A DNA stretch of 64,000 bases from a virus (Duplodnaviria; Caudoviricetes), in the IMG/VR virus record IMGVR_UViG_3300013936_000014; one strand, given 5' to 3'. Position 1 is the first letter of the stretch. Each line of letters starts with the position of its first letter. Made by a program: the position numbers and the translations under genes. This document shows positions 6,385 through 50,168 of this stretch, piece after piece. The notes beneath the pieces are model-generated. The model saw only the letters and a list, made by a program, of their open reading frames with translations. It was not told the DNA's origin and searched no databases.

Positions 6385-6428
6385 TGCTAAGCGATTTCGT
6401 AGGTTTGACGGAATGCTGGGTGAAATGC

Positions 6429-6956: not shown

Positions 6957-7016
6957 CCCTTTACTTGTTTCCTTTTTTTTGATATCATGATGCTAACAAA
7001 AAGAAAGGAGCCGCAT

Positions 7017-7631: not shown

Positions 7632-7680
7632 AAAAACGAGGCTCTTGCGGGCCTCGTTTTTTTACTGCGGTTCCAACGGT
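7626..7680. repeat. 55-bp inverted repeat, right copy (bidirectional terminator plus crossover arm)
   Basis: Reverse complement of 6902-6956 with one mismatch, in the hairpin loop. Confidence 0.95.
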
Positions 7681-8285: not shown

Positions 8286-8443
8286 ACCAATTCTGTTTTT
8301 GGCAATAAGCGTAAATTCAGAGGCACGCATCGTAAAAAAACAAAACTCGAATCAAAGAGATGAGGCAACGAACCAAGATAAACATCTGTTGCCGTTTGCG
8401 AGTTTAGCGCAACGATTCAACAACCGATGACATCTTATGAAAG

Positions 8444-9043
8444 TCAGAACCTTATCTTTTCTTTGAATGTATCCGAATCCGTGACAGCAAACTCTTCCCA
8501 AGCCCGGTCTTTGATATTATAACGAAAATAATATCTCTTAGAAGAAGAGCCTCTCAAATTATATAATGCCGAGAATCCGATAGTATAGCAGTCCGCTTGC
8601 GCGCCTGAATCATAATAATAGCATAAACCAAATTTTACAGAAGAAACACTTGAAGTCGAAGCATTCGTGGGCACCCACAAAGGAGTGCTCTCGGCGACAG
8701 CAAGAACTTTGTCTCCCGAGTCATCCGTTTTCAAATCAAGGGGTTTGCCGGCTATGGCGCTCCAGTTGATTGGATAATTTTTTAGCAATATGGAGTCGTT
8801 GCCGCCGCTATAATCATCGTGGACCCAGATGTCGTGATCATCCAACTTAATGGTTGTGTTTGGAACGTCAGAACTCCCGACAGACAAAGTTATGGTTTCT
8901 TCGGAATCTTGGTGCCACTCCCACTGAGCGTGCACGGCATGGTCGCTAACAATCGACGGTTTATTTTGTACTACGGACCAATCGGTCTCCGGATGAAGGA
9001 CATTGCCGCTGGCGTCCTTCAATCTAACTTTAATAGTTGACAT
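8444..9043 (-). CDS. expressed shufflon gene: 29-aa constant N-terminus + cassette D; probable receptor-binding/tail-fibre accessory protein
   Basis: AGGAGG RBS and ATG. MSTIKVRLKDASGNVLHPETDWSVVQNKP is a fibre-type N-terminus (LHPET, WxxVxNKP); LLKNYPINWSAIAGKP motif shared with A and B. Confidence 0.8.
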   Translation of the reverse strand: MSTIKVRLKDASGNVLHPETDWSVVQNKPSIVSDHAVHAQWEWHQDSEETITLSVGSSDVPNTTIKLDDHDIWVHDDYSGGNDSILLKNYPINWSAIAGKPLDLKTDDSGDKVLAVAESTPLWVPTNASTSSVSSVKFGLCYYYDSGAQADCYTIGFSALYNLRGSSSKRYYFRYNIKDRAWEEFAVTDSDTFKEKIRF

Positions 9044-9100
9044 ATTTTTCCTCCTTATAAGATTCCAAGGAATAAAATCCTCATTTTATTCCTCAATAAT

Positions 9101-9129
9101 AATATACAAAATCGCGATAGAAATATCAA
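9101..9129 (-). promoter_or_regulatory. sigmaA-like promoter of the shufflon expression gene
   Basis: TTGATA-N17-TATATT, followed by an 11-bp perfect 5'-UTR hairpin at 9068-9093. Confidence 0.6.
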
Positions 9130-9170
9130 TGTTTTTCTCATCGTAATTTTGTTTTTGTTTTTGTTTTTGC

Positions 9171-9365
9171 CTATTCTATTTCTTCATAGGTCAAGGTTTT
9201 ATTAGCCGCATCGATAAATTTATTCATCAAAACGGTAAACTGGCTCTTGAAATCTTCAAAATCCTTTTTCGAAGCAAATTCGCTTTCGAGAGCCCCCAAA
9301 GCGGCAATGGCCGCATCGAGTTGGTCGCCACTGTATTTGCTGACGTAGACTTTACTCTCTGCCAT
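9171..9365 (-). CDS. small tail-associated protein
   Basis: AGGAGG RBS; YVSKYSGDQLDAAI resembles the YxSKYxGxxID motif seen at phage fibre/baseplate N-termini. Confidence 0.55.
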   Translation of the reverse strand: MAESKVYVSKYSGDQLDAAIAALGALESEFASKKDFEDFKSQFTVLMNKFIDAANKTLTYEEIE

Positions 9366-15852: not shown

Positions 15853-16761
15853 TCAAACGTCTTTCAGCGTATATCCAAGACCAACGGCTCCTGGGCCAAT
15901 GATTCCGCCATGAAGAGGGTCTATCCTTGAGATTTTGCAATCGAAAGGCCCTTTTCCCATCTTTTTCGCCATAGAGGAAAAGTATTTCGCGAATTTTTCC
16001 GCTCGTTCCTCGCTGTCTGTGTATCCCACTTCGACGATGCCATCTTCGGGATATCCTTCTTTCTCCAGCATGGACATAATCTTTTTCGATAAAGCCATAT
16101 CCCCGCCCATGAATTTCGCCGCGACGCGTATGGTTCCAGAGGTGTCGACTTTCATGATGGGCCTTATATCAAGGGTATTCCCCACAAAGGCGGAGACTCC
16201 CCCGACCTTGCCGTATTTGGCCAAATAGGTCAGATTTTTGGGAACAAAATAAACCACTCTCTTCCCAATACTTTTCGAAAGGAAATCCTCCACCTGCTTC
16301 ATGGTAGCCCCTGCGAGCCTCATGGCCGCGGCCCCAATCACCCACGGAACAGACCCCTGAGCGACAGACCTCGAATCATACGCAACGATTTTTCTTTTGG
16401 AAAATTCTCCGCGCAGCTCCTTGATCGCCATCGGAAGATCAACATCAAAAGTGTTGGTACCAAAGCGCGAAAAATGGATATAAAGCACATCTTTACCTTC
16501 TTTAAGAAAGGGGCGAAAATATTTTTTGTATCCTTCTGCCGTTATCTTCCAAGTGTATATCCGATCCGCTCTTCTAAGATTTTCGAAAAACGAGTCGAAA
16601 TCAAAAGGTTCTCCATCAGAGTAAGGAAAAAAATCTGTCTCTCCAACTCTCAAAGGCTCTGAAATGAGCTTTATGTCATACTCTTTGCTAATTTTATCGT
16701 CTATCCCGCAATTCGTGTCGCTGAATATCACGTAATCAGTATGCCCATTTGTTGTAATCAT
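15853..16761 (-). CDS. degV: DegV family fatty-acid-binding protein (FakB-like)
   Basis: IFSDTNC, DVLYIHFS..GT, YDS, LTYLAKYGK, LDIRPIM, IGPGAVGL match the DegV motif order; start ATG 16761. Confidence 0.85.
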   Translation of the reverse strand: MITTNGHTDYVIFSDTNCGIDDKISKEYDIKLISEPLRVGETDFFPYSDGEPFDFDSFFENLRRADRIYTWKITAEGYKKYFRPFLKEGKDVLYIHFSRFGTNTFDVDLPMAIKELRGEFSKRKIVAYDSRSVAQGSVPWVIGAAAMRLAGATMKQVEDFLSKSIGKRVVYFVPKNLTYLAKYGKVGGVSAFVGNTLDIRPIMKVDTSGTIRVAAKFMGGDMALSKKIMSMLEKEGYPEDGIVEVGYTDSEERAEKFAKYFSSMAKKMGKGPFDCKISRIDPLHGGIIGPGAVGLGYTLKDV

Positions 16762-17752
16762 AAAGAGCTCCTCTTTCTTCCAGTAATTGGAAGACCTCAT
16801 CCATTCCCTGTTTCGGAGTTTTCCCGGTGCTTGACCAATGGTCGGACCATCTTATCCCATATCGAAAATAATCGCGATTCGCCGGCCACACCTCGTCCTG
16901 ATGCTTTATGATCTCCTCGAATTTCCTCCAAACGAGAGGCGCGAACGCTTTCCCCGCTTTCATGATAAGCGGGGTTATTTTCACATAATCGCTTCTTTTC
17001 CTCATTAACCATATGGCCACGTATTTGAGTCCGGAGAAACACATCCCCATAATAACACCAAACTCATTAATCGTCATGGAACTCGTCCCATCGAGCTTGA
17101 TCTCGCGCCCGAGAAATTCCCTCGGCGTCATGTTGTAAGCTTGATATCTCGCTCCTTTTATCGCCCATTCGAGAAGGGTGTCATACCATATGCTCTCTTT
17201 CCCGTTTATCACATAAGAGCAGAAATAAAGCAAGGGGTGACGAGTGTCCGCTTCGCAATTCGGGAATCCAGGCGTTGTGCAGAACCGCCCCTCATATATG
17301 GAATATGAGGGGGTGGAAAGCTGCGGGCTTCTCTTCATTATGGCATAAACTTCTTCTCTGGGGAAATAAATGGTTCTTGCCACTTCTCCGTCTTTGCGGA
17401 GCCATCGAATGAAATAATCACCCTCAAAGCAATCGGTCGCAAACATATTCGTATTATGAAAATCGATATTGCTTAACCCTTCGCAATCCTTAAATGCTTT
17501 ATGCCCAATTTTCCTCATCGTTAAGGGGAAAGAAACGGACCTGAGCTCTTTGTGCCCGACGAACGCGAGTGGGGCGACTTCAGTCGCCCCTTCTCTTATC
17601 CATAAAATAGGGGGAAGTTTCACTTCTTTAAATGCTTCCGAACCGATAACGGTGGCTTCTTTGGGAAGGGTTACATTCAGGACTTCTCCCGAGACGTCCC
17701 CTTTTTCCAAATAAACCTTCACCACAATTCCTTTATCCACATCAAATTTCAT
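16736..17752 (-). CDS. protein with N-terminal BspA-type leucine-rich repeats
   Basis: LPKEATVIGSEAF, FPLTMRKIGHKAFKDCEGLSNI repeats; own promoter TTGACT-N17-TAACAT at 17785-17813. Confidence 0.7.
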   Translation of the reverse strand: MKFDVDKGIVVKVYLEKGDVSGEVLNVTLPKEATVIGSEAFKEVKLPPILWIREGATEVAPLAFVGHKELRSVSFPLTMRKIGHKAFKDCEGLSNIDFHNTNMFATDCFEGDYFIRWLRKDGEVARTIYFPREEVYAIMKRSPQLSTPSYSIYEGRFCTTPGFPNCEADTRHPLLYFCSYVINGKESIWYDTLLEWAIKGARYQAYNMTPREFLGREIKLDGTSSMTINEFGVIMGMCFSGLKYVAIWLMRKRSDYVKITPLIMKAGKAFAPLVWRKFEEIIKHQDEVWPANRDYFRYGIRWSDHWSSTGKTPKQGMDEVFQLLEERGALYDYNKWAY

Positions 17753-31242: not shown

Positions 31243-32808
31243 TTACTTCTTCGCTTCTTCGAAGGCGATCTTCTCGATCTTCGAATAACGTTCCCCATTC
31301 AGAGTTTTTTCGAGCATAGCCTTGGAGTCGCATTCCCCCAAAGCCACCCTTTCATATAAATTCGGGGTAAACCCGGAGATCAGCGTAACACCAAGATCAT
31401 TCTGCAGGATAGGCACCGTGTCTGAACGGCTTCCGACATTCCAGAATACCAATTTAGGAAGCTTGTACCCATGTCTTTCGAATCTCTCGCCAGCTATTTC
31501 GATTGGGTTGTTGAAACGGCCGATGGAATCATTGTCCGCATCCACAACGCATTCATCGAATTCCATGTCGCTGATGATGAGGATGGTTCTGGGGAGATCT
31601 TCCTGACGCAGATTCTTCGAGACGGCCACTCCGAGGATCAGGTCAAACACGGCCTCTATGTTGGTGTTGGCAACCTCGCCGTTTTCCTCGAGATATTCCA
31701 AGATGTCTTTCAGACTTCTCTTTTGGGAAATATCAAGGAAACGGGGAGTCCTGCTGAAAGTGATCATCTTGCCATTATATTCGCCTTTCAGATGTTGGGC
31801 CCCGTAGATGGCTATGGAGTATGCGACATCCTGAGCCGTGACGCGGCTCTTCAAGGAGACGTAAGAGTACATCGACCCGCTTCCATCCGCGACAACCAGA
31901 CAGCTGTCAAGCCCTGAGGCGTCTTTCAGATTCTTCCATGCCAACTCCAAAGTCGCGTCTTCTTCCCCTGTTTTCTCCTCAAATCCAAGTTTGCTCATGT
32001 ATTTATGAACGATGTCGTAAGGGAAAACGGCAGAGGAATTCATCTTCAAGCCTTTTTTCCCTTTCTCGAGATCAGAGAGATATTGAGAGCGTCTTGGTCC
32101 ATCGTGTCTCATGAAAGCCTCTTTGTAAGCCAGATTGGCGCATGAGGGGACCGCGTTATAATCTACTTTATCCCAGTCATTCGCGCTCATATTCCGCTCG
32201 ACGATGTTTAATTTGCTTCGCATTGCACGCAAGGCCTTCCTATATACCTTCGGCGCAAGGGAAAGTCTCTTTCTTATTTTTGCGGCAAGTCGCCTGGTGA
32301 CCTTGCTGCTGGCATTCTCCGAAGGCAGCCACTTCGCAAGAAGAGTTACATTCTCTCCTTTAGAGAAGGCGATCATATCACGCATGAAGGTTCTTTCGAT
32401 GAAATCATATGCGATATCTTGCACTGAAGCATCGACATCGTCATCCAGTAGGCAGAAAATGTCATCAGCTCTGCCATATTCCATAATATAGTCGCAAACA
32501 TGGGCAATTATTTTTTCCTTTTCTTGAAATTCGCTTGCCGCAAACCTTTTAAGGCAGATTCTGAAAGTCCTTCTTTCGCCCAAACCGTTTTTGATATCGC
32601 GGATATAAAACAGAAAACGAAGAACGTTCTCGTTTTTGGAATCCAATACCTTCTCAAAATCTTCCTCGATATCTTTGGACTCTTTGCGGCGATAAGAAGC
32701 CAGCCTAAAGCTAAAATCAACCATTGGATCAAAGGTCGATTTGTATCCTTGCGCCCCTTTTTCGGTCACGGAGATGTTGTCGACTGCCTTCAAAAAAATG
32801 TCTTCCAT
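31243..32808 (-). CDS. DUF2828 / TROVE(Ro60)-like protein with C-terminal vWA domain
   Basis: TEKGA, FYIRDIKNGLGERRTF, EYGRADD, LAKWLPSE, vWA MIDAS VADGSGSM, TNIEAVF, ISDMEFD, VFWNV. Confidence 0.85.
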   Translation of the reverse strand: MEDIFLKAVDNISVTEKGAQGYKSTFDPMVDFSFRLASYRRKESKDIEEDFEKVLDSKNENVLRFLFYIRDIKNGLGERRTFRICLKRFAASEFQEKEKIIAHVCDYIMEYGRADDIFCLLDDDVDASVQDIAYDFIERTFMRDMIAFSKGENVTLLAKWLPSENASSKVTRRLAAKIRKRLSLAPKVYRKALRAMRSKLNIVERNMSANDWDKVDYNAVPSCANLAYKEAFMRHDGPRRSQYLSDLEKGKKGLKMNSSAVFPYDIVHKYMSKLGFEEKTGEEDATLELAWKNLKDASGLDSCLVVADGSGSMYSYVSLKSRVTAQDVAYSIAIYGAQHLKGEYNGKMITFSRTPRFLDISQKRSLKDILEYLEENGEVANTNIEAVFDLILGVAVSKNLRQEDLPRTILIISDMEFDECVVDADNDSIGRFNNPIEIAGERFERHGYKLPKLVFWNVGSRSDTVPILQNDLGVTLISGFTPNLYERVALGECDSKAMLEKTLNGERYSKIEKIAFEEAKK

Positions 32809-32877: not shown

Positions 32878-33543
32878 TCAGCCGAGCTCTTCCAATATGT
32901 TGTCGAGCTCCGCGCACCATCTTGACCTCATGCTTTTCACCAGTTCCACATGAGCCACCCATGGGGTTTGAACGTCTTTGAATTTATCTATTACTCTCTG
33001 AAAATCACATTTGCCTTTTTTTCTTTGTTCTATATCATCTATCTGATTCATGCTGCCCAACAATATAACTTTACAATAATCACTCATTCTAGTAAGAACC
33101 GTTTTAATGGAGGCAAGGTTGAGATTCTGACATTCGTCAACAATGAGAATTGTTCCAGGAGCAAAATTTCTCCCTCGAAGAAATCCAAGTGGTTCGACAT
33201 CAACTTTCGCTTGCAACTCTCTTGGGTGCATTTTATTCGTACTATTCCTGCAAAGACTCTCAAAAGTATCATATAAAGGACTCATATAAGGCTCAAATTT
33301 ATCTTCCAAACTTCCTTTAAGGAAACCCAAAGATTTTCCAACCTCAACAGGATTTCTGGTATAAATAATCTTTCGATATTTTTTCTGATCCAAAAGTTCT
33401 AAAGCCGTCGCCATCGTGACAAAATCCTTCCCAGTACCGGCGGCACCAGTAACGATAATCACGGGGATGTCGTTCGTCATTATCAAGCGAGACGCTTCCT
33501 GTTGTTCTTCATTGCCCTTAAGGCTGATTCCTAAAACTGACAA
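32878..33543 (-). CDS. phoH: PhoH family ATPase
   Basis: GAAGTGKD, LGFLKGSLEDK, FLRGRNF, DECQNL, LTR, QID; TTG start after AAGGAGG. Confidence 0.92.
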   Translation of the reverse strand: MSVLGISLKGNEEQQEASRLIMTNDIPVIIVTGAAGTGKDFVTMATALELLDQKKYRKIIYTRNPVEVGKSLGFLKGSLEDKFEPYMSPLYDTFESLCRNSTNKMHPRELQAKVDVEPLGFLRGRNFAPGTILIVDECQNLNLASIKTVLTRMSDYCKVILLGSMNQIDDIEQRKKGKCDFQRVIDKFKDVQTPWVAHVELVKSMRSRWCAELDNILEELG

Positions 33544-33720
33544 ATGAGATTCCTCCTTATTTGTTTTATAACCCAAATTCTAAGAAGAAAGGGCTATTCG
33601 GCCATTCGCCGATAAAGCAAATGCGGCCAAGCCGCCTGCCCTACCGTTACCGCGCACGCCACGTGGAGGCTGGCCCAAGTACGCTTAAAGCCCGAATAAT
33701 CGGGCTGCTCAATCACGACT

Positions 33721-33894
33721 TCAGCTGATGATGTCGTAATAAATCGGAGAGGATGTCTCTTCGATAAGATAAATAGCGTTGGCGTCATAAGTATAGCTTA
33801 CCCCCCCAACCGTCAAAGTCCCGCCACTCACCAATGTGCTCCATTGGGCCGCAGTAACTTTGTATATTTTTGTTAAATTAACACTGGATGCCAT
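33721..33894 (-). CDS. 57-aa fibre-related protein (below ORF-track cutoff)
   Basis: AAGGAGG RBS; MASSVNLTKIYKVTAAQWSTLVSGGTLTVGGVSYTYDANAIYLIEETSSPIYYDIIS resembles the N-terminal domain of the collagen-like genes. Confidence 0.7.
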   Translation of the reverse strand: MASSVNLTKIYKVTAAQWSTLVSGGTLTVGGVSYTYDANAIYLIEETSSPIYYDIIS

Positions 33895-33912: not shown

Positions 33913-34713
33913 TTAGTCATCATAATTACTGATGATTTCATTATATAATTTCTCTACTTGATTTGCAATGCCATTCGGAAAATTTGAAGCAAAATAATTG
34001 CAGCATTCCTTGATTTTGTTTATCACGGACTCTTCTTCTTTTTCAGAAAAACCCTCTTCCCCGTCTTTGTATTTCATGTCTTTAAGTCGTTTTGCCAGGC
34101 CCTTATCGTAATTCGAAGAAAACAACAAGGCGTGCCCCAAATAAGCCGTGTACCAAAATTTTTCGCAGATCGAATAAGCCGAAGAAAATTTTTTATCTTC
34201 GAACGAATTGCTCAGCCCCCCATTTTTTTTATCAAACTTGGGCATTAAAAAAGAAAAGAAAGCAAATGTTGATATTTCCCTCAAATGGTCTTTGATTTTC
34301 TTCAAAACAACGCCGTGATTCCGATCTTTGCTCTTATCTAAAAAAATAAAATTCGCCCCCTTAAGGCCGAATTTTACCAAAGACGCAAGCAAAGAAAAAT
34401 CTTTGTCGTCGTCGATTCTCATTATTTCATCTTTGATGTCTCCCAAAGAAAAACCAGCCCACTGCACAAAGTTATCCGCCAATTTGATAAATTTGACGCA
34501 ATGGCGATACTCTTTATCATAACTAGATATATTATCAAAAGTGCCGTTTAAATACAAAAACAAGATGTCGTAGTCGGATTTCTCTGTGGTGAGCCCGACG
34601 ATATCACTCCCTATAACCACCTCGGCAAGAAACCCTTCGGTTTTCAAGGAATCGAGGACACTGAGAGAAGACAATTGTTCAAAAACGGCTTTTCTGTCAT
34701 TTTTGAGAGCCAT
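33913..34713 (-). CDS. Pol-beta superfamily nucleotidyltransferase 3
   Basis: IGSDIVGLTTEKSDYD (GS...DxD); ATG 34713 after GAGGAG. Confidence 0.75.
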   Translation of the reverse strand: MALKNDRKAVFEQLSSLSVLDSLKTEGFLAEVVIGSDIVGLTTEKSDYDILFLYLNGTFDNISSYDKEYRHCVKFIKLADNFVQWAGFSLGDIKDEIMRIDDDKDFSLLASLVKFGLKGANFIFLDKSKDRNHGVVLKKIKDHLREISTFAFFSFLMPKFDKKNGGLSNSFEDKKFSSAYSICEKFWYTAYLGHALLFSSNYDKGLAKRLKDMKYKDGEEGFSEKEEESVINKIKECCNYFASNFPNGIANQVEKLYNEIISNYDD

Positions 34714-35419
34714 AATAGACGCTCCTCGTCTGCATCCAAGTCCCGACCGAGTCCACATCATCGAAAATCTCCCCACTCGGAACAACAAATTTTTCCATCT
34801 CGCCATAGTGGGGACAGAACATTTTTTTTGAAAGGTATAATCTGCCATCACATTTTTCATTGGTCCCCAAAACATATTCAATAAGATGTGTGTAATTAGC
34901 CAAACATCTTAAAGATGACATAAGATTGGAATATTTGTCTCTTATCTCTTTTTCTCCCTTTCTTATGCCAATATTCAATGAGAATTCAAGATAAGGAGAA
35001 CGATATTCGTTGATAAAAGACGCAAGATTGTCTTCTGAGAAGAACTGGCCATTAACCGCCAAAAGCCAATAATTCACCGAAAAACGCACTTTGATTTTTT
35101 TTCCGCATTTCATCGCAAGGCATCTTAAAAATGAAACTTCGCGATCAAAACCGACTCCGTTTGTTATCAATTCGACATCAGAAATTCTCTTGTCTTCCAG
35201 CAGCGCTCCCATAATGCCTTCGAATTGAGGATGCTCCAAAGGCTCTCCCCCAATAACCCTCACGGTATTAGGTAAATTTTTTGACAATGTTTCATTTAAA
35301 ACCCTTCCTAGGGTCTTCATATCAATGAAGTCATCGTTCTGAGACCTGCAGGCCAAACCGCAGAAAGGGCATTGCGCGGAACATCTGTCCGTTATATAAA
35401 GATGAATGATATTCTTCAT
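34697..35419 (-). CDS. radical SAM protein (short, no SPASM domain)
   Basis: CSAQCPFC, GGEP, ITNG. Confidence 0.9.
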   Translation of the reverse strand: MKNIIHLYITDRCSAQCPFCGLACRSQNDDFIDMKTLGRVLNETLSKNLPNTVRVIGGEPLEHPQFEGIMGALLEDKRISDVELITNGVGFDREVSFLRCLAMKCGKKIKVRFSVNYWLLAVNGQFFSEDNLASFINEYRSPYLEFSLNIGIRKGEKEIRDKYSNLMSSLRCLANYTHLIEYVLGTNEKCDGRLYLSKKMFCPHYGEMEKFVVPSGEIFDDVDSVGTWMQTRSVYYGSQK

Positions 35420-36009
35420 ATTTTTTTCTCCTTCCTCTTCTCTTCCAGTTTTTTGACAAACAACCCATAGTCGCCGTTTTTCGCACGTTTTATCTCTTCC
35501 AAAGAGAAGGTGCCTTCGAACAGCAAATTGAAAGCGTTCCCAAGATGATACAATTCTTTGGAAGGCATATAAGGCCCCTTCACTCTTTTGAAAAGCTCGG
35601 CCGCCGCCATCTCGCCTTTTCTTTTCGCCTCTGAAAGAACAAGGGAGAAATCAACATTATTATCCAACACACAGACATCTCCGGCTTTCACAAAGGCGAA
35701 ATTCAAATAGCCATATAAACGAGAGATGGAACAATTTGGCAAAATTGCGCACGGAAGATATTCGTCCAAGGAATTGAAAAAAAGACTGCATTTTGCGCCG
35801 CGCACCTCCCCCATCCAAACGTCAGAAGGAGCCGAATCCGCCACAATCACAACATCTATATCGCTTTTTCCATCTTCATACGTGCCATTGGCCAATGACC
35901 CCCCATAATACGCCAACAAAGGTTTCACCCCTAATGAGCGAAATTTGGGGAGAAAAACGCCAATCAATTCTTTCACATCAAGCATTTTTCTTTTATTGTT
36001 CTCTCCCAA
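35416..36009 (-). CDS. Pol-beta superfamily nucleotidyltransferase 2
   Basis: YGGSLANGTYEDGKSDID; alternative start at 35985. Confidence 0.8.
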   Translation of the reverse strand: MGENNKRKMLDVKELIGVFLPKFRSLGVKPLLAYYGGSLANGTYEDGKSDIDVVIVADSAPSDVWMGEVRGAKCSLFFNSLDEYLPCAILPNCSISRLYGYLNFAFVKAGDVCVLDNNVDFSLVLSEAKRKGEMAAAELFKRVKGPYMPSKELYHLGNAFNLLFEGTFSLEEIKRAKNGDYGLFVKKLEEKRKEKKI

Positions 36010-36662
36010 AAACCGTTCATATTTTTAAATGGAAAATCGTATTCATCGACATAATGCTTCAGTTTGCTCAGAAGATCCACGAGCACTACGCGATTTTCGT
36101 TTATATACGGGCCAAAATCCGTTTTGCATTTGAGGATATCGTCATCCGAGAAATCCGATAAGCCGAAATGATTTCCTAATTTCATTAAGCCGTAAATCCC
36201 CTTTTTAAGTTTGACGAATACCGCATCGGGATCGTCATTACAGCAAGAAAAAACATTTTTAAGAGACAAAATACTTATCGCTTCCTGATTTTCCCTTAAA
36301 AAAGCAATATATCTTTCCCCTTTTTCCGTAATCGCATAAAAAGAAGTCTCTTCCATAAGAGGAAGTTTCGCCCAAAATGCAGAACACCAGGGGATGCCTT
36401 TATTAGGGCCCCCGTCAAAAGAATTAAGAGAATGGAGATACCAGTGGACTTTCTCACCATTTACAAAAAGGAAACCATCTTTCGTTAAACGCCGCTCAGC
36501 GATATGATCAAGATTGCCGAAAAAAACATTAAAGTCCCAGTCTGATTGGAAGGTTCCCAAGCCAATTCCTCGACTCCCGCCAAGAGCAATCGCTATGGGT
36601 TCGCCGTTTAGGCTCTTCTTACCGAATTTTCTCCAAAACAAATAAAAATCCGAAAATGTCAT
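35973..36662 (-). CDS. Pol-beta superfamily nucleotidyltransferase 1
   Basis: LGGSRGIGLGTFQSDWD. Confidence 0.8.
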   Translation of the reverse strand: MTFSDFYLFWRKFGKKSLNGEPIAIALGGSRGIGLGTFQSDWDFNVFFGNLDHIAERRLTKDGFLFVNGEKVHWYLHSLNSFDGGPNKGIPWCSAFWAKLPLMEETSFYAITEKGERYIAFLRENQEAISILSLKNVFSCCNDDPDAVFVKLKKGIYGLMKLGNHFGLSDFSDDDILKCKTDFGPYINENRVVLVDLLSKLKHYVDEYDFPFKNMNGFWERTIKEKCLM

Positions 36663-36985
36663 TTTTCTTCTTTTTTCTCTGGGTCATTCGTCGAAGAAGA
36701 ATCGAAAATTTCATGAAAGTATGATACAACCGATTTTTTCCCCTCACCCTCGATGAGAAAATAATCATCGTTATCCCCTGTTAGGGGATTTTCCAAGCGA
36801 TCCCCTTTTTCATCAACGATCTGTTCATATAAAGATAATTGGGAAAAAACCTCCCCTGTCTTTATATTATATGCGACGGGAGCCCCTGAAACGGAATCGA
36901 TTTTACCCAGACAATGGTTTTTTATATAAAGAAAATTCTCTCCCGAATCATCTATCGGAATCTTCGTATATTTTTCGATATGCAT
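36659..36985 (-). CDS. hypothetical protein
   Basis: GAGGGG RBS; coupled (ATGA) to the first nucleotidyltransferase gene. Confidence 0.55.
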   Translation of the reverse strand: MHIEKYTKIPIDDSGENFLYIKNHCLGKIDSVSGAPVAYNIKTGEVFSQLSLYEQIVDEKGDRLENPLTGDNDDYFLIEGEGKKSVVSYFHEIFDSSSTNDPEKKEEK

Positions 36986-36996
36986 ACAACCCCCCC

Positions 36997-38472
36997 TCAT
37001 GTCTCTGCTTCAACCGTAAAAGTATAGGTGATGACCCCAGATACGGCGGTGCCGTGATAACCAGACCCCGTAGGCGAAAAATATGCCTTCAGAGTATAGG
37101 TGCTGCCAGTGCTGACCGACCAAGTATTCGGGCAAGTGGCAGAAGACATCGCGGGAACCTCCACTTTCCAGTAATCAACGCGAGTTCCGCTAGTCCCTGT
37201 GCCAGAATATAAATCAAGGCTGGCGCATAGCTGAACGGCATTGTTGTTAGCAATGTCAAAAGTCACTTTCGTGGGGGCAGAATCGTCGTCATAAGACGTC
37301 GAGACGACGATAGGATTGACATAGAGGTATCCGGAATCAGGAGCCTGAAACGGATAATAGACAGATTCTGATATCTGTTTCCCACTATAGCTTCGAGAGT
37401 CGACGAAATAAAGCATAATAACATATTTTGAGCCTCTTGCCATGGTAAAAGTCGTCCCGGACCCACTGGAAGTGATCAACGTGCCCGTTCCATTGGCCGG
37501 GCAATTCGCGAGCCAATAATCGGTCCCAGAGCCTGTGGTATTGAAATATTTGACATAGCAATATTTTTGGCTGCTGTTATTATTCTTGACCGTAACCTGA
37601 AAAGAAGTTGAGGTTGCTGAAGACGGCAAGCAGCTCACGAGTTGAGGAGGGTATATCGTTGTGGTAGAAGCCTTCACAGAGGGTGACCGAGTATTGGCAT
37701 CATCGGCAGAAAGCGCAGAATTCAAATAATAATAATGCCCCCCTAGGGTGGTGGTTGAGGCAATGGCGCCGAAGTCTCCCGCCGCGCCGCTGCTTGTAGC
37801 ACCCGACCCAACTTGCGCCGAAGTGCCGGCGGCTATTGTTGTTTTGCTTCCCGTGTATTGATCATAGCAACAAGCATCAACAGAGTTGGGATTCCTCATC
37901 TTCAAAACATAATTAATTTTGCCCACGGCAAACCTATATTGGGCATAAGGCCAAGGGTTTGAAGAATCATAGCTGTTGTTTGTATAAGTAATGTCGAACG
38001 ATATTGCCGTCGGAGACGAAAATTTTTTATACACGACCAATTCGCCCAATGTCGAAGCGACGCTTTGCTCCTGATACGGGAATAAGGGATCGATGCGGGT
38101 GGCGACCGAGACGGTATTTGCCCCGGGCTTCAGTGCGCTCGATGCATCCCAGGTGTAAGACCACGAGGTGTTCGGCCCCAAGACCATGAAAGTGCCGTTG
38201 GGGAAATTCGTTTCCGCCGCCGTGCTTGAGACATTCGGATTCATACAGGACCAACTGAGCAGAACCTCCTTCACGCTATCTTTGTTGTTGACATTGGCTA
38301 TCGTGACCGTGACTTTCGTGCCATCCACCGTCATGGACGAGATAGGGTTCGGCAAAAGGCTCTCTTTGCCAGTCGTTTGGGATAATGCGAAATACTTTCC
38401 GCCGCTGTAAACCGCCATACTTTTGACATCCGAAGTCGGCTTAGTCCCGGAGTATGCTTTGTATTTTCTCAT
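36997..38472 (-). CDS. Ser/Thr-rich beta-sandwich protein, probable fibre tip/adhesin
   Basis: Repeated Ig-like strands with NxN(S/A) turns; last gene of the fibre chain; ATG 38472. Confidence 0.55.
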   Translation of the reverse strand: MRKYKAYSGTKPTSDVKSMAVYSGGKYFALSQTTGKESLLPNPISSMTVDGTKVTVTIANVNNKDSVKEVLLSWSCMNPNVSSTAAETNFPNGTFMVLGPNTSWSYTWDASSALKPGANTVSVATRIDPLFPYQEQSVASTLGELVVYKKFSSPTAISFDITYTNNSYDSSNPWPYAQYRFAVGKINYVLKMRNPNSVDACCYDQYTGSKTTIAAGTSAQVGSGATSSGAAGDFGAIASTTTLGGHYYYLNSALSADDANTRSPSVKASTTTIYPPQLVSCLPSSATSTSFQVTVKNNNSSQKYCYVKYFNTTGSGTDYWLANCPANGTGTLITSSGSGTTFTMARGSKYVIMLYFVDSRSYSGKQISESVYYPFQAPDSGYLYVNPIVVSTSYDDDSAPTKVTFDIANNNAVQLCASLDLYSGTGTSGTRVDYWKVEVPAMSSATCPNTWSVSTGSTYTLKAYFSPTGSGYHGTAVSGVITYTFTVEAET

Positions 38473-38509
38473 AAGGCCCCTCCTTTTCCGTAACACTGTA
38501 GCATAAAAG

Positions 38510-39742
38510 TCACCTCAAGTCAACCATCGTCACCGTGGGCTCGGCTGGAAGAGTGGCCGTAATGTTCGTCGACCCCACGGTCGCAAGGGTGACCGCCGAG
38601 CCCCACGCAAGGGTGGCATTCTTATTCGTCGTCGCCGGAGAGCTGATGACAATACCCCCGTTAGAATCGGTCGCGACTACCGTTCCGCCGGAGCCCTTGA
38701 TATTGAACTGCGATCTCAGCGCCCCATTCTCATAGAGTTTCAAATAAGCCTCTCCATTGTTGGTGGCCTTATTGGCTGCCGTGTCTTTTGCGCCGACATA
38801 AAGATAAGAACTCCAATGGGTATCTGTATTCGTATCCGTCCAGGGGACGCTCACCGTCATGGAGCCATCACTCGCGACGCTGACTCCATATGTCTTACCA
38901 TTTGTCGTGCCGCCTTTCACAAGTCCTTTTGCGGAATTGGTCGCCGTTCCCGGCAATTGATTGGTCGTCGCCACCGCTTGCCCATTCTTCAATACGGTGC
39001 CGTCATCCTTCACCCGTAGAAAATTCGATGCGTTGGCGGAAAGGGACCACTGCAAAGTGCCGGCCGGCGTTGTGGTCGACCCCACCCCATCATAGGCGTC
39101 CGTAACGCCGTTCATCGCCCCCAGGGTGAAGTCGAAGGCGAAATACGAATACGTCTTTATGTACAGAGTGGCGGTGCTGTTGGAGCTTGCGGAGCCAGAA
39201 GTGTACACGACAAGGTCGCACAGGCTCAATGACGCATTCCCGAGAATGGTGCCGGTGGCGGCAACGCCATCTCTGTTCGATATCATCATCGAAAGATACC
39301 CTTTGTTGCCGTTGTTCCATCCTCCTATTCTTCCATCCACGGTCAAAGAGCAGGAATTGCCGGCATTGTCTATCGGAAAGGAAGCCAGCTTGTAATAAGT
39401 GTAGGTGCCCGCGGTATTTCCGCTGTTCCCGCTCTTGTAATGCCTGCTGTTGTTCGCTTTTTTATTTAAAGCCGCTTGGGTGGCATTCGATATCGGCTTA
39501 TTCAAGTCGCTCGTGTTATCCACGTTGCCCAAGCCGACGTCGTTCTTCGTGTAAGAGAATTTATCCACCGTAAGAAACGGCAGATTCCCGACCGTCGTGG
39601 TCCCGTCGCCGACCTTCGCTTTATGAAGATCGCTGTAGTAAATGTATTCGCCTTTCAGCGGGACGAAAGCGGTCGCTTTGCCCCAATTGGCGCTTGTGTC
39701 GGCCTTTTGCTGAATGCGCGTTTTCAATTTCTTTTCTGCCAT
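38510..39742 (-). CDS. tail fibre protein with Mtd/hyaluronidase-type N-terminal domain
   Basis: RIQQKADTSANW...PLKGE...KVGDG...LPF; DVGLGNVDNTSDLNKPIS repeat. Confidence 0.8.
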   Translation of the reverse strand: MAEKKLKTRIQQKADTSANWGKATAFVPLKGEYIYYSDLHKAKVGDGTTTVGNLPFLTVDKFSYTKNDVGLGNVDNTSDLNKPISNATQAALNKKANNSRHYKSGNSGNTAGTYTYYKLASFPIDNAGNSCSLTVDGRIGGWNNGNKGYLSMMISNRDGVAATGTILGNASLSLCDLVVYTSGSASSNSTATLYIKTYSYFAFDFTLGAMNGVTDAYDGVGSTTTPAGTLQWSLSANASNFLRVKDDGTVLKNGQAVATTNQLPGTATNSAKGLVKGGTTNGKTYGVSVASDGSMTVSVPWTDTNTDTHWSSYLYVGAKDTAANKATNNGEAYLKLYENGALRSQFNIKGSGGTVVATDSNGGIVISSPATTNKNATLAWGSAVTLATVGSTNITATLPAEPTVTMVDLR

Positions 39743-39949
39743 GATTGTCTCCTCCATTTATCGTTTCCAAAACTTGCAGAGATTGCCCTTCCCCATCATT
39801 CCAGAGGAAGGAGATATTCGCAATCCATCGTATTCTTGAATATGAACGACCCAAAAAGACATTGGATCGCAAATATCGCGGAACGGCCCGAAGGCGCGGG
39901 GTCTCCGCGCCTTGCGTTCCTTTTCATCCGCCCGAATAAAATCGGGCTT

Positions 39950-45331: not shown

Positions 45332-45823
45332 TCATCCATGGTTCTTCGTATCGCTTTCCCTCATCTTTTTCAGATTCAGTATTCTTTGGTTGGAACTGCC
45401 TCTCCAAAGAAGTTTGCCTCTGCCCGGATTCAGGGCATCCACATAAGGACCGTCGATGAGCACGTCTATATATCTCATCATTTCAAGATCCTTGATGTCC
45501 TCATAGAGGAATCCCGTATAAACCCATATGGTCTTGTCGGGATAGCGTTCTTTTATCCATTTCATGATTTCGGCGCCTTCCTCTCTGTTTGACGGGAAAG
45601 TGACCTCCCCTCCAGAAAAAGTGACGCCCGAGATCTCTTCTCTTCTCAATTGCTCATCAAGAGCGTCGTACAGCCATTCCCCGACAGGGGTGCCGACATT
45701 GGGGTCCCATGTCTCCGGATTATGGCAATGCGGGCATCGATGGCTGCAGCCAGCGCACCATATCACGCATCTGAGCCCATCCCCATTGACCTGATTGTTC
45801 CTCTCAAATCTGATGATGTTCAT
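45332..45823 (-). CDS. nrdG: anaerobic ribonucleotide reductase activase
   Basis: NGDGLRCVIWCAGCSHRCPHCHNPETWD, SGGE, WRGSSNQR. Confidence 0.95.
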   Translation of the reverse strand: MNIIRFERNNQVNGDGLRCVIWCAGCSHRCPHCHNPETWDPNVGTPVGEWLYDALDEQLRREEISGVTFSGGEVTFPSNREEGAEIMKWIKERYPDKTIWVYTGFLYEDIKDLEMMRYIDVLIDGPYVDALNPGRGKLLWRGSSNQRILNLKKMRESDTKNHG

Positions 45824-48355
45824 CACATGGACCTTCTGTCTTTCACTTCCGCCATTTTGGCGTCGTTCATTTTCGTGGTGCCCTCCACTTTGGAATAGCC
45901 GAGGTATCCGCACACCCTGTTTATGGTGGTGAGGTTATGGGACCCGCAGAAACCGCAGACCTCGTCGGCATCGTCGGTCTCGTTCCCACAGTCCTCACAA
46001 TAGGATTTCTCTATGTTCACACCGAAATAATATCCCAATTTCATCGCGCGCCTTATGCATTGTTTGATATATGCCTCATTCATCCCAGAGACGAAACGGC
46101 AATATTGGATGTGCCCGCCGCTCGCGATATGGAAATATCGGAATTCCGCGTCCTGCTTCTCATAAGGCGTAATATCCTCGGTCACATGCATATGAAAGGA
46201 ATTCGTGAAATACGCCCTATCAGACACTTTGTGGATCACGCCATATTTCTTCACGAATTGCTCTCGCTGAGTCCCACAAAGAGACTCTGCCGGAGTCCCA
46301 TAAAGGGCCGCTATATAACACAGTTTTCCTTCTTGATATTCTATTTTTTTCTCATCGACATAGTTGCTTATGTATTTAAGGACTTTGTAAGCAAAAGCAT
46401 CTTCGTCGTTTCTCACGTCATACAAAGATTTCCCGTTATAAAGTTCTTGCAGCTCGTTCAAAGCGGTGAATCCATAAGAGAAGGTTATCCTCTTGACAAG
46501 AGGAGCGATGTCGTCTGTCGGCTTGAGGCGTCCAAAACCGCCTTCGCAATATCCGACCGGATTGCAGCTCGCTTTCAGTTTGCATAAGAAATCGAACGTT
46601 TTTATATGGAGATGGTTGATCATATCAAGATAATAATCAAGCACTTCATAAAATCCTTTTTTCTCTTTCAATGATTTCTCATAAATCATCGGAAGATTCA
46701 AAGAAATTGCGCCGCCGTTAAAACGCCCGGTAAATATCGGCCTGTCTTCATCGCTGGCCGGCTTCAATCCGCCCTTCTCATAATAGGCGGACAAGTAGGC
46801 TCTACACGTTTTATCGAATGTCACCATTCGCACTGACTATATTATCAGCTTTCGCTGTTTCCTATTTGGACTCGGTGCTTATCTCCGAGTCTACTCCGTT
46901 ACATTCATCGCGGATAGTCGATACAGGTTCCTAATCTTTTTATAACCAATAAGATTAAGCTTCTCACGGTCTCATCTTATTTCTAAGACCTAACCGTTAG
47001 CAGCGACTAGTGTCGCCACACCCCCGAGCGGGGTTAAGGAAATTTAAGATGGGCTGTAGTTTGCGCTTACCCATCGGGCTGATAATCGAATCAACCCATT
47101 CAGGATTCTCCTGAACATTCTCGTTCTTATCCAAATACCATCTGGACACTCCGAATTTATGATATTTCTTGAATATGTTTGCAATCTGCGGGTCGTAATG
47201 AGGAGCGTGGGCGCCTTTGATCAAAGTCTCGTCCGGCTCATCGAGCGACAGCCAGTCCGGATACATTGCCACACAGGAAGTCTTCACGCCTTCGTTGAAC
47301 AACCATTCTAATGGCTTGCCTTCCCCATGGAGTTCTTTCGTATAAAGGAACACCATCTTCGGGAAGATCGCCGGACGTTTGTGGCCAGGATGTCCTTGTC
47401 CTTCGCGTCTGACTTTCAGTGCCGTGGACCAAACCAGAGCGCCGAATCTCGTTTCGTCACATCCGCCGGTGACGGTGATGAACGGGTAATCGCCGCGGCT
47501 TGAAGCCACAGTGTTGAACGTATGCTCGAATCCCTGGAATACCTGCTCGATATCCCTTTCGACTTTCTTGATCGCGTACTGATCCGCCGCATGCTCATCG
47601 TAATTGCCGTTCGTCAAAGCGCAGAGCGTTTTGTACTCGAGCATGTATTTGTCATAGGTTTTTTCGGCATAGGGGGCCAAGATCGAATCTATCTCCGGCA
47701 ATGTGAACCCCCCGTATTGCTGAGCCGCGCAATTCAGCGTGATGTCGCTGATCAGATTGCCTGCGGTTCGCACATCTTTAGGCTCATTGTAACCTATATG
47801 CTCCCACTCAAATCCGCCTTGCAATACTTTACCCATATCGAATAAACAGCAGTTTCCTGTGTCCAGCCTAGCGGACAGATCATGTATATAAATATACCCG
47901 TCGCTCATGGCGGACAATTCCTCTTTGCTGAGAAAATTCTTTTTGTAGATCTCTTTATTCAACGCGGAATACACCATGCTTCTCTTCGTGGAGACGAGAG
48001 CCGCCGATGTGTTCGCGTTGCTGCGATCTATCTTGTAATTCATTTCATCCGCCGTTTTGAGGACGTTATCCATCATTTTGATGAAATCTTCCTTGTAGTT
48101 GCGGTAATCCCTATATGCCTTCGCGACATCTTTATTCACTTTATCCAAAGCGCACTCCACGAAATTGTGCATCTTGGCCACAGGGATATTATCTTGTCCG
48201 TCTTTCTCGATTTCTTCTCCGATGAACCTCTTTATGTCTTCGAGGTCTTTGCCAGACAAAGAGATATTCACCCTATCCGCCGACTTACTCACCGCGGATC
48301 TGATTTTCTCGAAATCGAAAGGGACACAATGATTGTCTTTTTTAATAACATTCAT
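45823..48355 (-). CDS. nrdD: class III anaerobic ribonucleotide reductase (exons 48355-47069 and 46806-45823; 756 aa spliced)
   Basis: ATP cone, YIHDL, NCCL, rejoined SPMGCRAYL, TPAESLC, YFTNSFH, Zn CxxC pairs, glycyl-radical motif RVCGYLG. Confidence 0.95.
46807..47068 (-). ncRNA. group I intron (262 nt, no ORF) in nrdD
   Basis: 5' exon ends in U and the intron ends in G; P1 GATGGGT/GCCCATC with U-G pair; P10 CTACA/TGTAG; P7 GACTAT/ATAGTC; removal restores PMG|CRAYL in frame. Confidence 0.92.
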
Positions 48356-49155: not shown

Positions 49156-50154
49156 TCATTCCTGCTGAACAGGCTTTTTTGAGAAGAAATCGCTCAGGAT
49201 CTCCTCATCGCTCACATCATTGTATATCTTTATCATATCGGGGCTGGACCAAGAGAATATAAGGGTCACGACCGAATCCGGGAGGTGCATGCTCTTCAGC
49301 AAAGTGCAGAAATAATGCCTGCCGGAATGGCTGTAGAAATCTATCCCGAATTTTTTCGAGATCCTTCTGGCGAACATATTCGCGGTGGAGACATTGGCGG
49401 GCACCCATTTGCCGTCTTTTTCGGTGACGAACAGATAGTCGTTTTCTATGCCCAGGTTATTCCTTTCCTCCATCCAGTTCCTCAAATAAGGGTCGAAACT
49501 GTCTTTTATGACGTATTTTTTGATCAATTTTCCGATTTTGCCTCTGCCTTTCGATCTGATTTGGGGGGTGCAGTACATATATCCGTCGAAAACCTCGTTC
49601 TCTTTCGTGAAAAAAGAGGCCTTCATCTGAAGCATCTCCGATTTCCTCGCACCGCAGGAGCATACCAAAGCCACATAACAGGCCAATTGGTATTCCTTTT
49701 CGGCCGTAAGCGTGTCCAGCATGCTCTTGACCTCTTCGTTGGAAAGAACCGTTTTTTCCCTCACCGTCGTGATATGCACGGGCTCAAGCCCTCTGAGCTG
49801 ATTATGAAAATTCGGATATTCGTCCTCGTAAAGAAGCTCAATCTCGGTGGAAAGACTGCTGAGGCATGATTTCAAGGAGGCAATTCTGTTGGGGCTCATC
49901 CCCAACTCTCTCAAATACCCGAAATAGAATACAAAATCCCTCTTTTTCAGGTCGACGAAAAACTTATCGCCGTTCTCCCTATAATTCCAGCAGAAGAAGA
50001 CCTTGAGCCACGCCTCGTATTGCTGCTGCGTTTTCGGGGATTTGTCGTTGCTTTTGCAATATTGCAGATATTCCTTCACCAGCCGTCTGTTCTGAGGCGA
50101 GACCTTTTCGTAATCGCTGGTGAGGTTGTCGTTGTATACCGTTGATCTTGCCAT
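49156..50154 (-). CDS. tyrosine recombinase (XerC/D-like)
   Basis: Catalytic set R (GARKSE), K (SKG), HxxR (HSGRH), W (FSWSS), Y (IKIY). Confidence 0.9.
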   Translation of the reverse strand: MARSTVYNDNLTSDYEKVSPQNRRLVKEYLQYCKSNDKSPKTQQQYEAWLKVFFCWNYRENGDKFFVDLKKRDFVFYFGYLRELGMSPNRIASLKSCLSSLSTEIELLYEDEYPNFHNQLRGLEPVHITTVREKTVLSNEEVKSMLDTLTAEKEYQLACYVALVCSCGARKSEMLQMKASFFTKENEVFDGYMYCTPQIRSKGRGKIGKLIKKYVIKDSFDPYLRNWMEERNNLGIENDYLFVTEKDGKWVPANVSTANMFARRISKKFGIDFYSHSGRHYFCTLLKSMHLPDSVVTLIFSWSSPDMIKIYNDVSDEEILSDFFSKKPVQQE

Positions 50155-50168
50155 GGTAGATTTCACCC

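Follow-up and report, generated by a model that had tools for sequence, protein, structure and literature searches.

Accessory operons of phages have repeatedly yielded new nucleotide chemistry, counter-defence functions and RNA-repair enzymes. Among the nucleotidyltransferases (NTases), the MntA antitoxin modifies HEPN RNase toxins. RlaP adds one to two NMP to damaged RNA 3' ends, and PfRlaP is composed of an N-terminal NTase domain and a C-terminal helical domain (PMC12776372). An RNA-directed role of phage RlaP, TROVE and PhoH in large phages has been discussed (PMC7824862). The window analysed here, a stretch of 64,000 nt, originates from an uncultured phage of ~135 kb (record IMGVR_UViG_3300013936_000014). 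ORF analysis of the window placed five overlapping, AT-rich genes on the minus strand at 33913-36985, coding for a small acidic protein, three NTases (NTase-A, -B and -C) and a radical SAM enzyme (rSAM). A minimal radical SAM enzyme combined with three NTase families that are near-orphans was not found in the literature and family libraries searched.

All features of the region are encoded on the minus strand. The operon starts with the gene of the small acidic protein (36659..36985, 108 aa, pI 4.6), which has a ribosome binding site, GAGGGGGG, before the ATG at 36985. NTase-A (35973..36662, 229 aa), NTase-B (35416..35985, 189 aa counted from M9), rSAM (34697..35419, 240 aa) and NTase-C (33913..34713, 266 aa) follow, with successive overlaps of 4, 13, 4 and 17 nt. 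The NTase-B frame opens at a TTG (36009), its orthologues begin at M9 (35985). NTase-C starts at 34713 and not at 34881, in agreement with database proteins of 266 aa. A GC content of 0.38-0.44 was observed in the cassette versus 0.47-0.61 in the upstream fibre genes. Coordinates and GC values confirmed the arrangement first described, five overlapping AT-rich genes behind a fibre-tip gene with phoH and TROVE downstream.

The fibre-tip-like gene (36997..38496, 499 aa, with internal beta-rich repeats) lies outside the core of the cassette and comes after Mtd_N-type fibre genes. Its stop is located 12 nt ahead of the start of the small gene, and no terminator was found between the two. Fibre-tip gene and cassette probably share one transcription unit, and joint late transcription is most likely. 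The unit is probably closed by a gene for 57 aa (33721..33894) with a strong ribosome binding site, AAGGAGG, before the ATG. Its product is 93 % identical in the related lineage L004 (pN 0.06, pS 0.61) and had no family match in Pfam or PHROG. It had been labelled a mini fibre-domain; family and in-window searches gave this label no support, and the assignment was dropped for want of any similarity within the window. The intergenic stretch 33577..33720 (fold z-score -0.9) contains a hairpin after the 57-aa stop, which pairs in both phages compared despite sequence change, then a GC-rich block of ~85 nt upstream of phoH that is well conserved between the phages, and a weak terminator-like site (33635-33623). 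Downstream are phoH (32878..33576; PF02562, E 2e-44), whose product is 94 % identical in L004 though synonymous sites are saturated, and the DUF2828/TROVE-vWA gene (31243..32808; PF25043 and PF11443), for which a separate promoter-like site was located at 32863-32835 (11 of 12 positions matching). Both genes lie directly downstream of the cassette region in the window phage and in L004. A tRNA scan and an Rfam scan of the window gave no matches.

The same five genes occur in the same order behind a homologous fibre-tip gene in two further metagenomic lineages, with protein identities of 38-65 %. Cassette-bearing lineages are the window phage together with L003 as the first, L004 as the second and L005 as the third, and the gene-neighbourhood check that had been proposed revealed co-occurrence of all five genes in three independent lineages. 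In L005 (65 % identity) and L004 (58.5 %), the cassette comes after a gene whose C-terminus is homologous to that of the fibre tip. The catalytic aspartates and the rSAM cysteines are invariant and pN is 0.23-0.33 versus saturated pS, hence the genes are not decaying. The cassette is a genuine, translationally coupled operon under selection, and because it is kept under selection it encodes a function. Co-occurrence and invariant motifs support a functional unit and make the earlier term 'uncharacterised pathway' a fair description. So far, the cassette is confined to one small clade of uncultured ~135-kb phages. GenBank phages presented neither close nor distant DNA relatives; cassette proteins were lacking in IMG/VR, GTDB genomes and GenBank phages, where only generic rSAM or NTase matches without the cassette were obtained. 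All five genes were missing at the TROVE loci of 12 other IMG/VR phages, of which the closest, L017, had uninformative neighbours. PADLOC defence models matched the cassette at the motif level only.

The small acidic protein is the best conserved cassette member. Its orthologues, 58-65 % identical, begin with MHI(D/E)KYTK, and an ATGA overlap couples its gene to that of NTase-A. Pfam, NCBIfam and PADLOC yielded no match. An assignment to phrog_22385 was rejected as the match is absent in the orthologues; a U-box-like nature is a weak lead at best, the Atlas score of 0.86 being under a level reached by one third of shuffled sequences.

In the six-frame translation of the window (58,774 residues), the pattern GS-x(8-12)-SDxD matched at exactly three sites, each of them in the cassette. 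The three GS...SDxD proteins of the initial annotation were thus borne out, with a spacing of x9-10 and a motif unique to this block within the window. The residues of the C-terminal helix motif described as common to them coincide with invariant columns in the orthologue alignment of each NTase. The Pol-beta superfamily signature hG[GS]-x9-13-Dh[DE]h with both metal-binding carboxylates is invariant in the orthologues of all three: G29 S30 ... S40 D41 W D43 in NTase-A, G37 S38 ... S49 D50 I D52 together with E83 in NTase-B, and G35 S36 D37 ... S46 D47 Y D49, D66 and KFWYTA185-190 in NTase-C, the latter in seven homologues down to 39 % identity. For the third catalytic carboxylate, expected on a following strand, the invariant candidates were E70 in NTase-A, E83 in NTase-B and D66 in NTase-C; with a pLDDT below 50-60 in this region, the models of A and C are too uncertain for a placement at the active site. 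These alignments and the predicted structures show three active-looking putative members of the Pol-beta superfamily, with an NTase domain and a helical domain in the architecture of RlaP and KNTases. Calling them paralogous was an overstatement: pairwise BLASTP gave non-significant E-values of 0.03-1.9, so that paralogy is weakly supported. In hhalign, NTase-A and NTase-B aligned over 142 columns (E 0.021), while little aligned between NTase-C and either of them. The NTase families are near-orphans. Inspection of the sequences by eye revealed no signal peptides or membrane segments in the five cassette proteins. Neither net charge nor pI was discriminating; those of T4 RlaP are similar.

The most canonical of the three is NTase-B, which passed PF01909 with 24.6 bits (cut-off 21); NTase-A stayed below with 13 bits and NTase-C had no match to this or any other Pfam family. 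The best PDB sequence match of NTase-B was AF0614 (E 0.004), with CdnD at E 0.026, and it is related to an NTase of the IMG/VR phage L037 (L037:7896-8594; hhalign probability 95.5, E 1.6e-8). An identity as CD-NTase/CBASS cyclase was rejected, the best PADLOC match (E 1.2e-3, 16 bits) being restricted to residues 5-57. For NTase-A, the MNT antitoxin 7ae2 was the best PDB sequence match (E 0.019). Its AF2 model (pLDDT 63) has a predicted Pol-beta NTase domain and a C-terminal helical domain, and its best PDB matches included many NTase-fold chains, MNT being one of them (Z 4.1-5.5), led in the N-domain by ANT(4') and HalB (both 5.5), the CCA-adding enzyme and Tam41 (both 5.0); all these Z-scores are below the safe level of the tool. 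In a Foldseek search of BFVD, phage 'nucleotidyltransferase' proteins of 230-290 aa matched the model over its full length (best E 4.9e-6), eight NTase matches having an E-value of 1e-3 or less.

NTase-C is the most divergent of the three and has the longest helical domain. An exhaustive HMMER search found its family in 5 clusters (50 % identity) among 1.84 billion. In two orthologues the best PHROG matches were phrog_388 and phrog_14344, which are also the families matched by T4 NrdC.11 (Pfam RlaP). The AF2 model (pLDDT 64) had weak fold matches (3c18, E 0.09; AAD(9), Z 3.5) and weakly recovered the same top BFVD proteins as the NTase-A model. In the models of both A and C, beta-strands are predicted within the ~110-125 N-terminal residues and only helices thereafter, which is consistent with the RlaP arrangement of an NTase and a C-terminal helical domain. 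Membership in the Pfam family RlaP did not hold: none of the three NTases matched PF10127 at E<=1, whereas the control T4 NrdC.11 scored 46.6 bits. Against an alignment of five RlaP sequences, hhalign aligned only the motif (E 0.005-0.08), for NTase-C with E 0.005 over 22 columns and for NTase-A with 0.025 over 34; NTase-B was not significant. A sequence search for RlaP structures in the PDB found no match.

The CxxxCxxC protein, proposed earlier to be a radical SAM enzyme, proved to be one: it contains C13xxxC17xxC20 and GGEP57-60 and just passes PF04055 (29.7 bits, cut-off 29.5). These residues together with TNG86-88, C190 and C202-P-H204 are invariant in seven homologues, and the family is known from seven clusters only. 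The nearest Atlas clusters are all radical SAM, with a phage rSAM cluster at the top (score 0.98). The best NCBIfam matches were MoaA (7e-11), HxsC (1e-8) and viperin (2e-4), all limited to residues 7-110; PADLOC matched pVip (4e-6), and the core also matched the peptide maturases HxsC, ScmF, PqqE and YydG. By its sequence, the protein is a putative minimal enzyme with a MoaA/viperin/SPASM-like core. Several full-family identities were rejected. A MoaA of full length is contradicted by a score of 41.6 bits (cut-off 284), the match stopping at about residue 100-110, a viperin of full length by 20.5 bits against 180 with the C-terminal part unmatched, and an NrdG activase by 12.4 bits (NrdG2) against 131; QueE matched weakly (E 0.007-0.08 only). 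A genuine NrdG is encoded elsewhere in the window, at 45332-45913 beside nrdD (155 bits, cut-off 126). An rSAM of Dulem virus 40 shares 27 % identity and stands in a different gene context.

We tentatively explain the cassette by a tailoring or modification of RNA 3' ends linked to the neighbouring PhoH-TROVE-ncRNA genes, which we regard as possible rather than probable. In the manner of RlaP, each NTase would extend RNA 3' ends by one or a few nucleotides, perhaps with a specificity of its own for nucleotide or substrate. The rSAM would chemically alter either this RNA or the nucleotide to be added, and the small acidic protein could be a specificity factor, a scaffold or a substrate. Targets might be small RNAs or tRNAs of phage or host that are damaged or trimmed during infection; such targets would tie the cassette to the downstream PhoH, TROVE/Y-RNA-like and tRNA-like genes. 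In favour we counted the conserved gene order, invariant motifs, purifying selection, gene overlaps and the uniqueness of the motif in the window, furthermore the fold matches of NTase-A, the PHROG matches of NTase-C, the RlaP build and the position of phoH and TROVE. Against it count the missing PF10127 match, the restriction of the RlaP profile alignment to the motif, the middling models (pLDDT 63-64) with their low PDB Z-scores and the absence of the cassette at 12 TROVE loci. Genes for an RNA ligase, kinase or phosphatase were seen neither beside the cassette nor among 24 further window ORFs scanned, and a known RNA-repair system pairing NTases with radical SAM was not found in the literature or family libraries. 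The operon is moreover joined to the fibre-tip gene and not to phoH and TROVE, which have their own start regions and an evolutionary rate very different from that of the operon. That rate (pN about 0.3) equals the one of the fibre tip and is often seen in arms-race genes, as would suit a modified nucleotide or oligonucleotide: the rSAM would alter an NTP that the NTases polymerise, cap or attach, for host takeover or for counter-defence, in which the product would terminate chains, imitate immune signals or serve as a decoy for them. The best matches of the rSAM core to the NTP-using MoaA and to pVip/viperin, the faint CD-NTase/cyclase matches of NTase-B (PADLOC, CdnD) and the alignment of the NTase-A model with the signal-making HalB point in this direction. 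We nevertheless consider such a pathway doubtful, since the matches cover generic core motifs far under the family cut-offs, an effector, sensor or nucleotide-kinase partner is lacking, late expression together with the fibre genes would be unusual for a counter-defence function, and three separate NTases are left unexplained.

Proteins may be the substrates instead. MNT/KNTase-like AMPylases would then act on host toxins (e.g., HEPN RNases), on the small acidic protein or on the 57-aa product, with the rSAM as a peptide or protein maturase. Consistent with this are the PF01909 match of NTase-B, the PDB matches 7ae2 (A) and AF0614 (B), the similarity of the rSAM core to peptide maturases, and an operon headed by a highly conserved small protein with ATGA overlap and ended by the 57-aa product. 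Such nucleotidylylation is nonetheless rather unlikely in our estimate: a HEPN partner is missing, the small protein has neither an Rx4-6H motif nor a precursor-like leader/core pattern, and the rSAM lacks the full SPASM/twitch cysteine set, with only C190 and C202 conserved. The position of the cassette directly behind a homologous fibre-tip gene in all three lineages would suit a functional tie to the receptor-binding fibre tip, with a chemistry of the fibre, its chaperoning, a host surface polymer or a small molecule by KNTase/Lnu/Tam41-like enzymes. Divergence of the cassette keeps pace with that of the distal fibre genes, with flanking genes still at 93-95 % identity, the NTase-B relative in the unrelated phage L037 is also encoded right behind tail-fibre-like genes, and an alignment over 150 residues relates the NTase-A model to Tam41 and ANT enzymes. 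However, the slot behind tail fibres commonly holds accessory cargo, so that the linkage may reflect descent alone; the cassette has the same divergence that the two phages show elsewhere as a baseline (65 % for TROVE, about 66-70 % nt for the tape measure), and the operon contains no glycan, lipid or export gene, nor did reading of its proteins indicate signal peptides or membrane segments. We regard this role as distinctly improbable. There is also a rather small chance of a new phage pathway in which rSAM and the three NTases act together to make or transfer an unusual group derived from nucleotides, for counter-defence or for altering the fibre or host interface, with the small acidic protein as carrier or specificity subunit. 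Candidate products are a modified nucleotide or oligonucleotide and, alternatively, a protein or an RNA that has been nucleotidylated.

RNA devices are unusually numerous in this phage and comprise TROVE with its dedicated ncRNA, a virion RNA polymerase, ribozymes and a tRNA-like element. If RNA ends are the targets, RlaP-type repair would be extended to a multi-enzyme, radical-SAM-assisted system; a small molecule or protein adduct as product would represent a new phage pathway. The narrow distribution limits the present impact of the cassette.

In comparison with other loci, the NTase of L037 (IMGVR_UViG_3300043822_000061) is homologous to the N-terminal half of NTase-B and likewise encoded right behind distal tail-fibre-like genes. 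In contrast to the cassette, L037 has one NTase and no radical SAM enzyme; its small neighbour gene belongs to phrog_5084 and has no similarity to the small acidic protein, and holins follow instead of phoH and TROVE. With MoaA, viperin and SPASM/twitch enzymes, the rSAM shares CxxxCxxC at the extreme N-terminus, GGEP and TNG, and its best HMMs are MoaA, HxsC, TrsS and viperin; it differs by a length of only 240 aa and a family-specific C-terminal half (C190, CPH202-204) with an incomplete auxiliary-cluster motif. The MNT/KNTase group (PF01909; MntA, ANT(4'), Lnu) resembles the cassette NTases in GS...DxD, in the PF01909 match of NTase-B and in the two-domain KNTase build, and the NTase-A model aligned with ANT(4') over 101 residues (Z 5.5) and with MNT (Z 4.5). 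The cassette differs from this group by the lack of a HEPN partner and of an antibiotic-resistance context, by its place in a phage late operon and by identities of 12-17 %. Compared to RlaP, the cassette NTases are shorter (189-266 aa versus about 250-350 aa) and occur in three divergent copies together with a radical SAM enzyme, a pairing not described for RlaP. Like RlaP they are phage-encoded, with GS-x-x-hG-x-x-T-x-x-SDxD in the N-domain and a predicted helical C-domain. The T4-like RlaP motif FGSHLYGTxTPESDxD has its counterpart in IGSDIVGLTTEKSDYD of NTase-C, whose best PHROGs are those of RlaP, and both are encoded in an RNA-related neighbourhood.

The cassette at 33913-36985 consists of five minus-strand genes, which encode a 108-aa acidic protein (36659-36985), the putative Pol-beta-type nucleotidyltransferases NTase-A (229 aa, 35973-36662) and NTase-B (189 aa counted from the methionine used by the orthologues, 35416-35985), a radical SAM enzyme (rSAM, 240 aa, 34697-35419) and NTase-C (266 aa, 33913-34713). 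A long ORF would start NTase-C at 34881, but orthologues and database proteins begin at M57, equivalent to 34713, which rules out the upstream start. Consecutive genes overlap by 4, 13, 4 and 17 nt, and the GC content of the block is 0.38-0.44 versus 0.47-0.61 in the upstream fibre genes. A strict GS-x(8-12)-SDxD motif was present three times in a six-frame translation of the 64-kb window (58,774 residues), all inside one 2.1-kb part of the cassette, and rSAM contains C13xxxC17xxC20 followed by GGEP and TNG motifs. The AT-rich block of five overlapping genes proposed in the initial annotation is real and not an artefact. The AT-rich island includes, besides the cassette, phoH (32878-33576, minus strand) and part of the DUF2828/TROVE-vWA gene located downstream of phoH (31243-32808, minus strand); it is flanked by fibre genes and a tape-measure/RNA-polymerase gene. 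The small gene has its ribosome-binding site, GAGGGGGG, 12 nt past the stop of the fibre-tip-like gene (36997-38496, minus strand). No terminator was detected between these two genes in the scan, and the sole promoter-like site positioned to drive the unit in a consensus scan (38523-38495) immediately precedes the fibre-tip gene, so the consensus scans suggest that the cassette is probably co-transcribed with this late gene.

Three loci with the cassette were recovered in a metagenome scan: a 134.8-kb contig of the same phage with about 95% nucleotide identity (L003), a 136-kb contig (L004) and a 3.6-kb contig (L005). In L004 and L005 the order small protein, NTase-A, NTase-B, rSAM, NTase-C is kept with overlaps of the same kind, and in both a homologue of the fibre-tip gene precedes the cassette; the objection that these genes might never co-occur elsewhere is thereby removed. 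In the comparison with L005, self-similar BLAST segments revealed that the fibre-tip-like protein contains a beta-rich module of ~90 residues in three or more copies. Between the window and the orthologues in other cassette loci, protein identities were 58-65% for the small protein, the best conserved member, 38-48% for NTase-A, 50-54% for NTase-B, 43-47% for rSAM and 47-50% for NTase-C. Invariant in the orthologues were the GS...DxD residues of the NTases, the three cluster cysteines of rSAM and the C-terminal helix motifs, together with one extra acidic residue per NTase (E70 in A, E83 in B, D66 in C). The cassette genes are under purifying selection, with pN values of 0.23-0.33 against pS values of 0.75-0.84 at saturated synonymous sites in the comparison with L004. 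Invariant catalytic residues and these substitution rates speak against decaying genes with unconserved aspartates, the other reservation of the initial annotation. The fibre tip evolved at the same pace (pN 0.30). Nucleotide identity to L004 was 96% from 45653 to 39575 and then dropped to ~58-66% across the cassette and the distal fibre genes that precede it. The TROVE gene (65%) and the tape measure gene (about 66-70% nt) are as diverged as the cassette, thus its divergence represents the baseline of the two phages and not hypervariability. The abrupt break in identity at ~39575, past which about 60% remains, is located inside the second fibre gene (38510-39757) and looks like a recombination joint that swapped the distal fibre module.

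Downstream of the cassette, the 57-aa gene (33721-33894, minus strand) and the phoH gene that follows it evolve far more slowly than the cassette, with pN values of 0.04-0.06 at similar pS (0.61-0.74, near saturation) and 93-94% protein identity between the window and L004. The constraint on these two genes is much stronger than on any neighbour gene. In the gap between them (33577-33720, minus strand; L004 11685-11812) a hairpin pairs in both phages despite differing sequence, and the GC-rich block of ~85 nt after it shows far higher conservation than the neighbouring DNA of the cassette. A terminator followed by a leader element of phoH is a possible reading of hairpin and block; the fold z-score is only -0.9.

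The cassette proteins were not found in IMG/VR, GenBank phages and one genome per GTDB species; the cassette is so far known from a single small clade of large phages that have not been cultured. When every fetched locus was searched with profiles, the NTases and the small protein turned up in the three metagenomic loci only. An exhaustive HMMER profile search of 1.84 billion cluster representatives gave five members of the NTase-C family and no other credible match, a word-indexed search two clusters for NTase-A, and a collection of 5.8 billion proteins seven homologous clusters for rSAM (39-99% identity). TROVE genes of 12 other phages had no cassette in their vicinity, and the literature searched held no description of an operon of NTases and a radical SAM enzyme of this kind.

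The NTases had initially been described as paralogous. They share the superfamily signature, a two-domain build and the grammar of the C-terminal motif, but pairwise BLASTP gave no significant match. Profile-profile comparison aligned NTase-A with NTase-B over 142 columns (E 0.021), spanning the motif near the N-terminus as well as the 'LGN-F-L...FS...K' helix at the C-terminus, and with NTase-C over 115 columns (E 0.042); NTase-B and NTase-C gave essentially no alignment. The three may plausibly share an ancestor within the cassette. Pfam PF01909 was passed by NTase-B only (24.6 vs 21 bits), NTase-A reached 13 bits and NTase-C nothing; sequence searches of the PDB returned weak MNT-type matches alone. 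AF2 models of NTase-A and NTase-C (pLDDT 63-64, pTM 0.69) have their strands within the first ~110-125 residues, the rest being helical. Many NTase-fold chains were among the best structural matches of the NTase-A model to PDB representatives: ANT(4') and Hailong HalB (both Z 5.5), ANT(4')-IIb (Z 5.3), a CCA-adding enzyme (Z 5.0), Tam41 (Z 5.0 over 153 residues), 3c18 (Z 4.8) and MNT (Z 4.5). Foldseek against viral models gave eight full-length matches for NTase-A (E<=1e-3), all to phage proteins with a nucleotidyltransferase annotation and a length of 230-290 aa; among their sources are Enterococcus Sw5, Bacillus Mater and BCD7 and Klebsiella Eowyn. NTase-C matched the same proteins weakly, with Sw5 at the top and CBB, Mater and BCD7 further down; 3c18 ranked first among PDB entries, again as a weak match.

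For rSAM, HMM matches were obtained to MoaA (7e-11), HxsC (1e-8), TrsS, a tungsten-cofactor maturase and viperin (2e-4), every one ending near residue 100-110 and far under the family cut-offs. C190 and C202-P-H204 are conserved in the C-terminal half, which is particular to this family; the nearest language-model clusters consist of small radical SAM proteins from phages. A role as activase of the anaerobic ribonucleotide reductase was rejected because a genuine NrdG is encoded elsewhere in the window (45332-45913; TIGR02491, 155 bits vs 126), adjoining a split nrdD (45823-46833 and 46997-48355). This NrdG gene immediately precedes the chain of fibre genes. Further genes in the window encode a DegV-family protein (15853-16800) and a BspA-type LRR protein (16736-17752), both downstream of the giant tape-measure gene, and a tyrosine-integrase-like protein (49156-50166) amid structural and metabolic genes. 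The small acidic protein (pI 4.6) gave no reproducible family match; a U-box-like Atlas match scored 0.86, within the range of shuffled sequences. It may be a subunit or substrate of the cassette, or, since its gene sits right after the fibre tip, could be a fibre-associated factor.

What was observed is an operon that is conserved, coupled and under selection and encodes three NTases that look catalytically intact, rSAM and a small protein; the earlier designation as an uncharacterised pathway describes it fairly. We tentatively favour, at odds clearly below even, that the NTases add nucleotides to RNA 3' ends or modify them in an RlaP-like manner. RlaP adds NMP to RNA 3' ends (PMC12776372), and RlaP, TROVE and PhoH have been described as RNA-directed functions in large phages (PMC7824862). 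An RNA-tailoring activity of the cassette would serve the adjoining RNA-centred genes. A modified nucleotide or oligonucleotide as product appears rather unlikely, and the same doubt applies to AMPylation or maturation of a protein. Chemistry linked to the fibre or surface is improbable, and the remaining share falls to some other function.

None of the three NTases matched RlaP (PF10127), and hhalign against a five-member RlaP alignment covered the motif only, so they cannot be assigned to this family. T4 NrdC.11, a PF10127 protein, belongs to phrog_388 with phrog_14344 as second match; the same two PHROGs were the best matches of NTase-C (E 0.012 and 0.016), and phrog_14344 was the best match of its L004 orthologue (E 0.0026). 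NTase-B is homologous to a 232-aa NTase of an unrelated phage (IMGVR_UViG_3300043822_000061; hhalign probability 95.5, E 1.6e-8). In that phage the gene immediately follows tail-fibre-like genes and is followed by holins, within the stretch 5792-9268 of the locus. The C-terminal 'KRFYHIIRIRGQLEDYKKTGKF' of this NTase resembles the RlaP helix 'WKALSHAxRxGLQLxEIYxTG' in an alignment that is not significant; unlike the cassette, it is without a radical SAM partner and has a small neighbour of another family. The parts of the cassette belong to known superfamilies, while the families themselves are near-orphans; among known systems, the NTases are predicted from sequence and models to resemble two-domain NTases of the RlaP/KNTase type.
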